64,000 nt of DNA, taken from assembly GCF_048403405.1 (NCBI RefSeq), contig NZ_CP183129.1; one strand, written 5' to 3'. Shown piece by piece: positions 18,948 to 37,521 of the stretch. Each line of letters opens with the position of its first letter. The stretch's first letter is position 1. The notes beneath the pieces were generated by a model. The model was not told the DNA's origin and ran no database searches. It saw only the letters and a list, made by a program, of their open reading frames with translations. A program made the translations under genes and the position numbers. This DNA is from Escherichia coli. Lineage in GTDB: Bacteria > Pseudomonadota > Gammaproteobacteria > Enterobacterales > Enterobacteriaceae.

Positions 18948-20489
18948 TTACTCTTCGTTCTTCTTCTGACTCAGACCGTATTCCCGCAACTTATTGGCAA
19001 TCGCGGTATGCGAAACGCCCAGGCGTTTTGCCAGTTTGCGCGTGCTGGGATAATTGCGATAAAGCTGGGTTAATACCGAGCGTTCAAAACGGCTGGTGAT
19101 TTCGTCCAGCGAACCTTCCATCGCATCTTCGCCCACGGCTACCGTTGCGGCGTCATAATCCGGTAACAAAATATCCTGTGGACGCAGCTCATAACCGTCC
19201 AGTTGTGTTAGTGCGCGATAAATAGCGTTCTTTAACTGCCGCACATTTCCCGGCCACGCATAACGCGTAAGTACAGTATTCAGGTCAGCGGCCAGTTTCG
19301 GACGCGGCACGCCCTGCTCGTCGGCAAAGCGGGCGACGAACAGCTCGGTTAAAGGCATGATGTCCTGCGGACAGTCACGTAGCGGCGGCAGATTGAGCGT
19401 CAACACGTTCAGACGATAATAGAGATCTTCACGGAACACGCCTTTTTGCACCAGTTCGACCAGATTCTTCTGCGTAGCGCAAATCACCCGCACATCGACA
19501 TGCACCTCATGGTCTTCGCCAACCCGACGGAAAGTGCCATCATTAAGGAAACGCAGTAATTTCGCCTGCATCCGTGGTGACATCTCACCTATTTCATCCA
19601 GCAGTACCGAACCACCGTTCGCCTGCTCAAAGAACCCTTTCTTCCCTTCCGGGGCATGACCAAACAGTTCACTCTCGACCGCATCTTCCGGGATAGACGC
19701 ACAGTTCAGTGCCAGGTAAGGTTTGCTCGCTCTGGGGCTTGCCTGATGACAGGCATACGCAAAGAGATCTTTTCCGGTGCCGGTATCACCGGTTATCAAC
19801 AATGGCGCGCTTAGCATCGCCAGTTTCTGCGCCTGTTCGACAACATGCTTCATTTTCGGGCTGACAGCGACAATTTGACTAAAGGCGCTGACGTCCTGGG
19901 CGGCGACATTTTGCAACTGACGGCCCATACGAATCGTTGATCGCAGCATCACCACCGCACCGGTCAGGACGTGTTGATCATTTTCATCCTGAAGATAAAC
20001 AGGCGTAATCTCCATCAGGAAATTCTGTCCATTAATAACGACATGCTCGTTATGGGAATCCTGCGGTTCGCTTTCCAGCCAGCGTAAAAAATTAAAGCCG
20101 TTAATCAATTGTGCGGCGGTATGGTTGCGCAGACGATCCAATTTTTGCCCAAAAAGCTGACAGCTCGCCGGGTTCGCCATATCCACTTTGCTTTTCATAT
20201 CGACAGAGAGCACAGGTTCAGGCAACGCTTCCAGTAACGCGCTCAACGCCAGATGCTCACGTTCAGAAGGCATCCACGGGACAGTACGGACATCGGTAAC
20301 ACCTGCAATACGGCGTATTTCGGCCATCAGACTGCTGAAACTCTCAAACTCCAGTTCAGCAAAATTGAGGTAGATTCGCCCAATGGGGTCAATCTCAATA
20401 CCGCGTAAATCAATGCCTCTTAGCACGAGTAGATCGAGTAATTCGCGGGTCAGACCGAGTCGGTCTTCACAAAAGACTTCCAGACGCAT
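18948..20489 (-). CDS. tyrR: Tyrosine repressor TyrR (sigma54-type AAA+ regulator without activation function)
   Basis: ORF 18948..20516; start at MRLEVFCEDRLG (513 aa); Walker A GDTGTGKD, C-terminal HTH. Confidence 0.92.
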   Translation of the reverse strand: MRLEVFCEDRLGLTRELLDLLVLRGIDLRGIEIDPIGRIYLNFAELEFESFSSLMAEIRRIAGVTDVRTVPWMPSEREHLALSALLEALPEPVLSVDMKSKVDMANPASCQLFGQKLDRLRNHTAAQLINGFNFLRWLESEPQDSHNEHVVINGQNFLMEITPVYLQDENDQHVLTGAVVMLRSTIRMGRQLQNVAAQDVSAFSQIVAVSPKMKHVVEQAQKLAMLSAPLLITGDTGTGKDLFAYACHQASPRASKPYLALNCASIPEDAVESELFGHAPEGKKGFFEQANGGSVLLDEIGEMSPRMQAKLLRFLNDGTFRRVGEDHEVHVDVRVICATQKNLVELVQKGVFREDLYYRLNVLTLNLPPLRDCPQDIMPLTELFVARFADEQGVPRPKLAADLNTVLTRYAWPGNVRQLKNAIYRALTQLDGYELRPQDILLPDYDAATVAVGEDAMEGSLDEITSRFERSVLTQLYRNYPSTRKLAKRLGVSHTAIANKLREYGLSQKKNEE

Positions 20490-20559
20490 GGGAACCTTCA
20501 CCTGAAAAAAGAACAATTAATATGATGATATGACACTATTTGGATAGCAGGAAGGTTTC

Positions 20560-20577
20560 TGTCAACAATCATTGACA
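20560..20577. promoter_or_regulatory. Perfect palindrome TGTCAA-N6-TTGACA upstream of tyrR (candidate TyrR box)
   Basis: 18-bp palindrome 71-88 bp upstream of the tyrR start; resembles the TyrR box consensus TGTAAA-N6-TTTACA. Confidence 0.4.
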
Positions 20578-20636
20578 CAAAGACGGAAAAACGGGCACTT
20601 CGGCGTAAAGATATCCGGTCAGCACCCGATATTGCA

Positions 20637-21698
20637 TTATTTTTCGCTGGGCGTTTTGCCTTTTTGCAGCGTCTCTTTCACCTGACCGATAAGCTGACGA
20701 CGGAAATCCCCGAGGCGAGGTTTGTCATCGTCAATCCACGGCAGAGGGCGGCAAAGCTCCATAGCTTTAATCCCCAGTCGTGCCGTCAGAAGTCCTGCAC
20801 CAATCCCCTGAGCTGCCCGGGTAGACAAACGCGCAGCGAGATCTTGCGACATCCAGTCCATCCCCACTTCGCGCACCAGTTCGCTGGCTCCGGCGAAAGC
20901 GATATTCAGCAATACCAGCTTAAACAGGCGCAAACGGCTGTAATATCCCAGTTCAATGCCATACAGCGTGGCGATGCGATTGATCAAACGCAGATTGCGC
21001 CAGGCGATAAATGCCATATCCACCAGCGCCAGCGGGCTAACGGCGATCATTAACGTTGATTCCGCTGCCGAACGGCTGATTTCGCGCCGCGCCTGGGCAT
21101 CTAAAACCGGCTGGACCAGATGAGCATACAGGCTGACCACTTCACGATCGTTCTGCGTTTCATGGATTGAGGCATACCAGCGTTGCAGTGCCGGATGCGA
21201 CTGGTCGATGCCCGCCTGCTGCGCCAGTTTTTCGCAGAATGCACGGCCTTTACCCGTGCCGTGACTGTGCAACAAATCGCGCGCTTCGTCGCGTTCATGG
21301 GCGCGCTGTCGCAAGCGCCATAAGCGCCGCCACTCTGTTACCACAGAACCTACGCCAGCGCCGATAATCAATGCCCCAGCGGCACATCCACCCAGCGCCA
21401 CCCAGTCCTGGGTTTGCCAGGCGTTCATTGTCCACTGTACACCCTGCCCGACAACGCTTGCGCCAAACAGAGCCAGCCCGCCCATCACCATTTTGCGCCA
21501 CAGGCTGCGTTTAGGACGTAACGCTGCATCCATTACCGCTTCAACTTGCCCCTCTTCTTCCTGCGCTTCATCGAGCGTGGCCGGGGCAAAATTTTGCGCC
21601 TGATTTTCGTCAAAGGTCTGCTGCGCCCTGAATTTTGGATTCTGATCGACCTCCAGTGGACCGTCGAAATCAATACGTGGTTTTAACGGTTCGGTCAT
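20637..21698 (-). CDS. ycjF: UPF0283 inner-membrane protein YcjF
   Basis: 353-aa ORF; start overlaps the ycjX stop by 4 bp. Confidence 0.85.
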
Positions 21699-35313: not shown

Positions 35314-36993
35314 TTATTTAATCCACATAACCTGCCAGGGGCGCAGCGTTATTTCATTACCCAATATATCAACTTCACTAATCAGATCCCGACCGTGCAG
35401 ATCAGTAATATTTATATGCTGAATATTTTCACTGACATTAAACAATCCTGTCAGACAATTACCATCCGCGTTGTTTCTTTGAATACGCATTACGGATGAA
35501 TTAACCGTGTCGATGGTAAAATCATTATCCGGATGAAACTCGTTATGACTGCAACGAAGTGTAATTAAACGCGACAACTGATGATATACCGCATGCCTTA
35601 ATGTATCTTCATCGTTCAGTTCTCGGGTTATCTCTTCATTGTGATATTTTTTACGGTTAATCGCACGGTTATATCCCAGTTTTTCGACACCTGCGTAATC
35701 ATTACGCGAGCCAAGAATACTTTGAATATATATCGCTGGCACACCGGGGAAACTTAACAAAATCGCATGGGCAAGGATAAACCTGGCACACCGCTCTTCA
35801 TCGCTACTCTCGCGGCGGCTTAACGCATCCATATAGGTGACATTTATTTCATAGGGACTGCGCGTACCGTCGGGATTATTTTTCCAGTTTACTAATGCAC
35901 CTTCCTGCTGTAACGCCTCGACCAGCGCTAATATTTCGCTTTCTGGTAACAAGCCACGCAGTGGGTTCAGCCCGATGCCATCGTGAGAGGCGAGGAAGTT
36001 AAACCAGGTGGTGTTGCTGGAAGGTAGTGTCAGGTTTTGCGCCCACGCACAAAGCGCCTCAACGTTCTGTTTTTGCACCGCATGCAGCACCAGCGGCGGC
36101 AGCGAGAACTGGTACACCATATGCGCTTCGTCATCGCCTTCGCCAAAGTAAGCAATGTTGTCTTTATGCGGAACATTGGTCTCGGTAATGATCACTGTAC
36201 CTGGTGCTACGTCATCAATAATCGACCGTAACAGCTTGATAATCAGATGTGTTTTTTCCAGATGGATGCAGCTTGTTCCTGGCTCTTTCCACATAAAGCC
36301 AACGGCATCCAGCCGGACATATTCTGCGCCCTTTTCCAGGTAGCACAGCAATACATCCACCATCGCCAGCAACACTTCAGGGCTACGGTAATTGAGGTCA
36401 ATTTGATCGTCGCTAAAGGTGGTCCATAAATGGCGCGTGGAATTATCATCCATTTGAAACGGTGTTAATAGCGGTAACGCACGCGGACGGGTGACGGCGC
36501 TGAGATCGGTTTGCGGATCAACAGCAATAAAAAAATCTTCAAAACCTGGCTGCTGTTGTAAATAGTTTTTAAACCATTCACTTTTTGCCGACATATGGTT
36601 GCAGACAAAATCAAACATTAAATGACTGCATTCACCGAGTTGCTGAATATCCTGCCACTCCCCCGCTTCACTGGCGACCTGATGATAATCAATTACCGAA
36701 AACCCATCATCAGATGACCATGGATAAAAAGGTAATAAATGAACATGTGAAAAAATGCTTTGCAGCCATTGATGGTAAAACTGATTAAATGTGGGTAGTG
36801 GTTTTAAATCATTACTGTGAAATTGATCAGCATAGGTAATTAACACGACATCACTTTCATCCCAGTGTTTTTTACGTCGCTGTGTAATTAATCGTTTCGC
36901 ACTCTCAAGACGCGTTACAAGTTTCTGTAAATGAGTCGCGGTAAATGTTCCACCGTAGATTTCGTCCAGGTAATCCGTAATTTTCTGTTTCAT
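35314..36993 (-). CDS. ycjM: GH13 sucrose-phosphorylase-like glycoside phosphorylase
   Basis: ORF 35314..37020; start taken at MKQKITDYLDEIYGG (559 aa). Confidence 0.85.
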   Translation of the reverse strand: MKQKITDYLDEIYGGTFTATHLQKLVTRLESAKRLITQRRKKHWDESDVVLITYADQFHSNDLKPLPTFNQFYHQWLQSIFSHVHLLPFYPWSSDDGFSVIDYHQVASEAGEWQDIQQLGECSHLMFDFVCNHMSAKSEWFKNYLQQQPGFEDFFIAVDPQTDLSAVTRPRALPLLTPFQMDDNSTRHLWTTFSDDQIDLNYRSPEVLLAMVDVLLCYLEKGAEYVRLDAVGFMWKEPGTSCIHLEKTHLIIKLLRSIIDDVAPGTVIITETNVPHKDNIAYFGEGDDEAHMVYQFSLPPLVLHAVQKQNVEALCAWAQNLTLPSSNTTWFNFLASHDGIGLNPLRGLLPESEILALVEALQQEGALVNWKNNPDGTRSPYEINVTYMDALSRRESSDEERCARFILAHAILLSFPGVPAIYIQSILGSRNDYAGVEKLGYNRAINRKKYHNEEITRELNDEDTLRHAVYHQLSRLITLRCSHNEFHPDNDFTIDTVNSSVMRIQRNNADGNCLTGLFNVSENIQHINITDLHGRDLISEVDILGNEITLRPWQVMWIK

Positions 36994-37206
36994 GTTGCCT
37001 TTCCGTGGTAGCGGTCCCATGAAACGAGAGACTACTCCGCAGAAAATAAACTGTCAATTGAGTACAAGGGTTTTAGTCACGCAGGAAATCATTTTTTACC
37101 AGGGAAAAAGCGTATTTGTGAGCTGACGCAAATAATCTATGGGGATGTAAATAAGGTGTGACAGAAAAAGTAAACGGCGCATAAGCGCCGCTTAGGGTGG
37201 ATTCTT

Positions 37207-37521
37207 TTAACCTTTGACCTTCGGCATTGCGATGTCTTTCAGGCCACCGGCGTTCTCAACGTGGGTATATCCCATCTCGCTAAGGATCTCTTTTGCCTGC
37301 CCTGACTGGCGTCCGGCATTGCAATACACTTTCACGGTGTCGTTTTTATCCGGAACGGCGGTGGCAATGCGCTCTTTTACTTCCTTCAGGGGAATATTGA
37401 TGGCTCCCTGAACGTGCTCTTGCTGATACTGCTCTGGAACACGAACATCGATCCAGTGTTCAGCGGCGAAAACGGGCAGTGAAAACACCAGTGTCAGAGC
37501 AAGTAAGCCTTTTTTAAACAT
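37207..37521 (-). CDS. pspE: Periplasmic rhodanese (thiosulfate sulfurtransferase) PspE
   Basis: 104-aa ORF; signal peptide; active-site Cys in YCNAGRQS. Confidence 0.9.
   Translation of the reverse strand: MFKKGLLALTLVFSLPVFAAEHWIDVRVPEQYQQEHVQGAINIPLKEVKERIATAVPDKNDTVKVYCNAGRQSGQAKEILSEMGYTHVENAGGLKDIAMPKVKG

Follow-up and report, generated by a model that had tools for sequence, protein, structure and literature searches.

The inverted repeat at positions 20560-20577, just upstream of tyrR, is very probably the strong TyrR box of the tyrR promoter and thus the operator for negative autoregulation of this gene. Judging from its position, its match to the TyrR consensus and its conservation, the element would correspond to the published tyrR box, although literature text searched with the operator sequence as 18-mers and sub-strings, on both strands, contained no relevant match. 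The tyrR operator is already described and ordinary: TyrR is the master regulator of the synthesis and transport of aromatic amino acids, and this is the textbook site of its autoregulation. What we add here is a phylogenetic footprint of the site together with the layout of the promoter around it, in which the box is followed by a weak -35 and then by the -10 at an invariant distance. This layout corrects the idea that the TTGACA arms of the repeat are promoter elements, and it exposes a puzzle, namely that TyrR represses tyrR from a position where it activates elsewhere.

The window, i.e., the whole stretch of 64,000 nucleotides that was analysed, was identified as Escherichia coli chromosome, and the 601 bases around the dyad are matched in 5415 of 5426 complete E. 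coli genomes. According to the RefSeq annotation of an identical genome, tyrR (513 aa) occupies 18948..20489 and ycjF 20637..21698, both on the minus strand; ycjX lies beyond ycjF, also on the minus strand, and tpx is carried on the plus strand. The tyrR product scores 1057 bits against the NCBIfam TyrR equivalog NF008085 (cut-off 576) and contains a TyrR/PhhR helix-turn-helix (HTH) domain at residues 460-507. Thus, ycjF sits upstream of tyrR and on the same strand, with its stop codon 60 nt upstream of the dyad. Counting upstream from the A of the tyrR ATG, the dyad occupies nucleotides 71-88, a position that had been given in a preliminary description of this DNA and that the RefSeq coordinates of tyrR bear out. 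The ycjF-tyrR spacer of the window is identical to that of MG1655, where coordinates equal 1407209 minus the window coordinate and the dyad falls at 1386632-1386649. Elsewhere in the window, the McaS/IsrA small RNA was recognized at 1992-2087 on the plus strand (Rfam RF00115, 112.8 bits).

On the plus strand the dyad reads TGTCAACAATCATTGACA, which can be parsed as TGTCAA-CAATCA-TTGACA, and in the direction of tyrR it reads TGTCAATGATTGTTGACA. The preliminary description had presented it as a perfect 18-bp palindrome. This holds for the two 6-nt arms, which are perfect inverted repeats of each other, but not for the centre, where CAATCA is asymmetric and not self-complementary; with 7 of its 9 pairs symmetric, the element is better described as a 6-N6-6 dyad. 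When the flanks are included, it grows into an extended imperfect dyad at 20556..20581 with 10-nt arms (20556-20565 and 20572-20581) that are 90% complementary, carrying a single mismatch.

Compared with the TyrR consensus TGTAAA-N6-TTTACA, the dyad has two mismatches and therefore agrees at 10 of the 12 arm positions. Strong TyrR boxes have been defined as those with at least 10 of 12 consensus matches, a G and a C placed 14 bp apart being essential (PMC4374768). The dyad falls into this class: it reaches the 10 matches, and its G and C occupy positions 2 and 17 of TGTCAACAATCATTGACA. It is also located within the promoter region of tyrR, which belongs to the TyrR regulon. A second sequence with 10 of 12 consensus matches and the same G-N14-C arrangement, TGTAAATAAGGTGTGACA, was noted at 37146-37163. 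It is found directly after a terminator-like hairpin, in the spacer between a 104-aa open reading frame (ORF; 37207..37521, minus strand) and a 568-aa ORF (35314..37020, minus strand), which, from their position, may be pspE and ycjM. Matches of this grade, such as TGTAAATAAGGTGTGACA, occur at about the frequency expected by chance.

The conservation of the dyad was assessed in a scan of one genome per species, which yielded 80 Enterobacteriaceae loci with TyrR proteins of 84-99% identity, from Escherichia, Citrobacter, Salmonella, Enterobacter, Klebsiella, Raoultella, Kosakonia, Buttiauxella and other genera; together with the window these make 81 sequences. We found the dyad at all 80 loci, 84-99 nt upstream of the ATG. 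Its arms read exactly TGTCAA and TTGACA at 77 of these loci and in the window (78/81), the remaining three (two Buttiauxella species and 'Enterobacter sp. R1(2018)') deviating by one base of the proximal arm, and the essential G and C are invariant at all 81 orthologous sites. Mean column identity is 0.997 in the arms and 0.907 in the central six bases, compared to 0.638 in the rest of the intergenic spacer. The centre accordingly appears in many versions, including TATTTG, TAATTG, TGTTTG, TGATTG and CTTTTC. A site bound by a dimeric protein, and not an RNA stem, would be expected to combine invariant arms with a centre that varies and is rich in A/T. Taken together, the 10 of 12 matches, the G-N14-C arrangement and the near-invariance of the arms across 80 species uphold the proposal of the preliminary description that a TyrR box precedes tyrR.

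Several features of the flanks were also recorded. The box is bordered by C and G (CTGTCAA-N6-TTGACAG) in 47 of 55 distinct sequences, and symmetry further out is weak; the distal flanking base is G in the window and in the closest Escherichia loci shown. At some loci of Enterobacter, Lelliottia, Leclercia and Pseudenterobacter the palindrome is extended by at least 4 bases, with flanks of the GGC/GCC type. An extended cruciform or hairpin was considered and rejected, as the complementarity of the flanks decays after one base. LexA boxes have the form CTG-N10-CAG, and a LexA-like reading of the flanked dyad (CTGT...ACAG) was rejected because its spacing is CTG-N14-CAG. Finally, a box-like 18-mer that overlaps the strong box at an offset of +10 in 71 of the 81 sequences is a by-product of two conserved elements, an arm of the strong box and the neighbouring CTTCC; since the two boxes cannot both be filled at once, it was not treated as a site.

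To place the box within the promoter, we relied on a published transcription start site (TSS) of tyrR at MG1655 coordinate 1386690, which is supported by 78 reads in Supplementary Data 1 and 2 of a SMRT-Cappable-seq study (PMC6131387). It comes from a single dataset and, mapped through the identical MG1655 spacer, corresponds to position 20519 on the minus strand. In an excerpt of the Cappable-seq supplement of PMC4782308, no TSS near tyrR was present among the entries listed. A -10 hexamer, TATCAT, is found on the minus strand at 20525..20530 (-11..-6), 6 nt upstream of the mapped TSS, and 17 bp further upstream lies TTCCTG (20548..20553, minus strand; -34..-29), a weak -35-like hexamer within the conserved CTTCC, which we infer from its spacing only to be the -35 of tyrR. 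The blocks CTTCC and TAT(C/T)AT are conserved downstream of the box: in the alignment the -10 columns and the bases CTTC are invariant, and TTCC(T/C/A)G is present in most of the 81 sequences. The box thereby spans -58 to -41 relative to the TSS, with its centre at -49.5 and its promoter-proximal edge 6 bp from TTCCTG.

The dyad is thus not only conserved among orthologues but also held in fixed phase with the core promoter. The box and TAT(C/T)AT are exactly 29 bp apart in 81 of 81 sequences, whereas the -10 lies anywhere from 31 to 46 nt from the ATG, and the gap between the stop codon of the upstream ORF and the box ranges from 10 to 208 nt. Given one fixed distance among variable ones, we assign the box to the tyrR promoter and not to the 3' end of ycjF. 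TyrR has been stated to repress tyrR by binding upstream of its -35 (PMC4374768, citing Camakaris & Pittard 1982 and Cornish et al. 1986), and a box at these positions, upstream of a weak -35, agrees with that statement. The autoregulation suggested by the preliminary description is therefore supported both by the fixed spacing to the tyrR core promoter and by the literature.

Resemblance to the TyrR consensus alone is not significant, the window containing 4 sites with at most two mismatches compared to 2.55 expected, and this near-chance frequency of 10/12 matches is what would favour reading the dyad as the site of another regulator or as a chance palindrome devoid of function. What places the dyad beyond chance is the combination of exact symmetry, position and conservation: the window has one copy of the exact pattern TGTCAA-N6-TTGACA where shuffles predict 0.01, the arms hardly vary among about 80 species, compared to 64% conservation in the rest of the spacer, the dyad precedes the gene for the very factor whose consensus it matches, and the literature puts a TyrR site upstream of the tyrR -35. 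We therefore give this explanation virtually no credence. Slightly less remote, yet still very unlikely, is the suggestion of the preliminary description that the arms double as working -35 hexamers, one for tyrR and the other for a divergent transcript running towards ycjF, in which case TyrR would repress either by occluding the -35 or by drawing polymerase away to an unproductive divergent promoter in the manner of aroP P1/P3. Each arm does read TTGACA on its own strand, aroP provides a precedent for recruitment of polymerase to a divergent promoter by TyrR, and at 28 nt from the arm the plus strand carries a conserved GTAAAG, complementary to CTTTAC. However, a scan of both strands revealed no -10-like hexamer at a distance of 16-18 bp from the TTGACA of either arm; towards tyrR, the six-base stretches at these spacings (CCAAAT, CAAATA and AAATAG) match at only 2-3 of 6 positions and fall in poorly conserved columns. 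A sigma-70 -35 is also expected to have the start about 7 nt beyond such a -10, whereas 41 nt separate the mapped TSS from the arm (at -46..-41), and in all species the conserved -10 follows this arm only after 29 bp. As for the second transcript, ycjF is co-directional with tyrR, leaving no divergent gene to serve, and, since ycjF is on the tyrR strand, RNA made in that direction would be antisense to ycjF at its 3' end; among the TSSs listed in the portions of the tables searched, none was on the reverse strand near the spacer. Neither part of this suggestion is supported.

Another way to explain the dyad would be at the level of RNA, as a hairpin (terminator, attenuator or processing site) in read-through RNA from ycjX-ycjF into tyrR. 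Such RNA exists, and the dyad is consequently transcribed in some molecules: both ycjXF and ycjXF-tyrR transcripts were reported by SMRT-Cappable-seq (PMC6131387), and RegulonDB, as quoted in PMC3041696, also lists transcription of tyrR by read-through from ycjX-ycjF. The 6-10 nt arms could, moreover, pair. Against this, an intrinsic terminator combines a G+C-rich stem-loop with a T-run, whereas the dyad would form a short A/U-rich stem that is followed by GAAACC and not by a T-run, and a terminator scan was negative. Furthermore, the arms are invariant and do not covary while the loop varies, symmetry of the flanks is lost after one base, a constant distance from the -10 speaks for a promoter element acting at the DNA level, and a separate hairpin with a T-run is already available upstream, at 20628..20587. 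We accordingly regard an RNA hairpin at the dyad as extremely unlikely and retain the TyrR operator as the explanation of this element.

The separate hairpin, at the 3' end of ycjF (20587..20628, minus strand), is terminator-like. Its 8-bp stem (20628..20621 paired with 20599..20592) encloses an unusually large loop of 21 nt and is followed by five T's (20591..20587). Across the alignment the stem positions can pair in 76.8% of cells, compared to 31-50% in slid controls, and the covariation score is 0.415 against at most 0.18 in these controls. The hairpin is present in the minimum free energy (MFE) fold, the single-sequence fold being unremarkable (z = -0.83); RNAalifold returned no consensus structure for the ycjF 3' region, where support was confined to the 8-bp stem when it was specified in advance, and the terminator scan of 20400-20760 found nothing. 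Such a hairpin would explain why ycjXF and ycjXF-tyrR transcripts are found side by side. Separately, a genomic SELEX table (PMC5493296), in the part available, records a peak in the ycjF>tyrR spacer (~20490-20636), within a section on constitutive promoters of the extracytoplasmic-stress sigma factor.

A conserved CTTTAC falls within the loop of the ycjF hairpin and in E. coli forms part of TGACCGGATATCTTTACG (20604..20621, minus strand). With 7 of 12 consensus matches and a G-N14-C arrangement, TGACCGGATATCTTTACG may tentatively be viewed, from sequence, as a candidate weak TyrR box. Its centre is located 44 bp upstream of that of the strong box, which corresponds to about four helical turns. 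A box-like 18-mer is present at this offset in 45 of the 81 sequences, and the motif TT(T/C)AC is separated from the strong box by a fixed 27 nt in 53 of 81 and by 13 nt in another 10, while 16 sequences lack it. These observations raise the possibility that TyrR, bound to or looped across both boxes, also gates read-through from ycjX-ycjF into tyrR, in which case it would act as a roadblock or as a modulator of termination on the heat-shock-driven ycjX-ycjF unit. A sigma-32 promoter has been reported for ycjX (PMC3041696). We consider such gating very unlikely. In a weaker variant of the same proposal, the conserved GTAAAG would serve as the -10 of a divergent promoter that depends on TyrR.

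Returning to the strong box as the operator of tyrR, the following sequence of events can be envisaged. A TyrR dimer would bind TGTCAA-N6-TTGACA through its C-terminal helix-turn-helix and would thereby take the DNA between -41 and -58 that is normally used by the C-terminal domains of the RNA polymerase alpha subunits. The bound protein would presumably also lie against sigma region 4, the -35 of this promoter being poor, and its occupancy would be predicted to lower the recruitment of polymerase, although only modestly. In the reviews by Pittard, repression of tyrR is reportedly only few-fold and independent of aromatic amino-acid cofactors. The mode of repression is nevertheless not obvious, because a box near -50 occupies the position from which TyrR activates at other promoters.

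Among known systems, a comparable arrangement is that of aroP, where TyrR recruits polymerase to a divergent, non-productive promoter (P1/P3). There, likewise, a TyrR site is placed near the promoter and -35-like hexamers point both ways; the tyrR dyad differs in having no -10 partner, and no divergent start appears among the TSSs listed in the parts of the tables consulted. Unlike the tyrR box, the aroP boxes are located downstream of the P1 start (PMC4374768). The hexamer on each strand of the dyad is identical to the consensus sigma-70 -35 (TTGACA) but differs from such an element in lacking a -10 at 16-18 bp and in the position of the arm at -46..-41 relative to the mapped start. The closest parallels are the boxes of the E. 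coli TyrR regulon (aroF-tyrA, aroL, tyrP, aroP, mtr, tyrB, aroG, tyrR and folA), which have the same 18-bp 6-N6-6 dyad form; the element matches their consensus at 10 of 12 positions and has the G and C 14 bp apart. At the other members repressed by TyrR, the boxes overlap the -35, the -10 or the start site (PMC4374768), whereas the tyrR box is wholly upstream of the -35, a location that is more typical of activation by TyrR. We found the tyrR box to be otherwise not set apart from the boxes of the regulon, and, like the autoregulatory operator described for tyrR, it is a dyad in the tyrR promoter, upstream of the -35.
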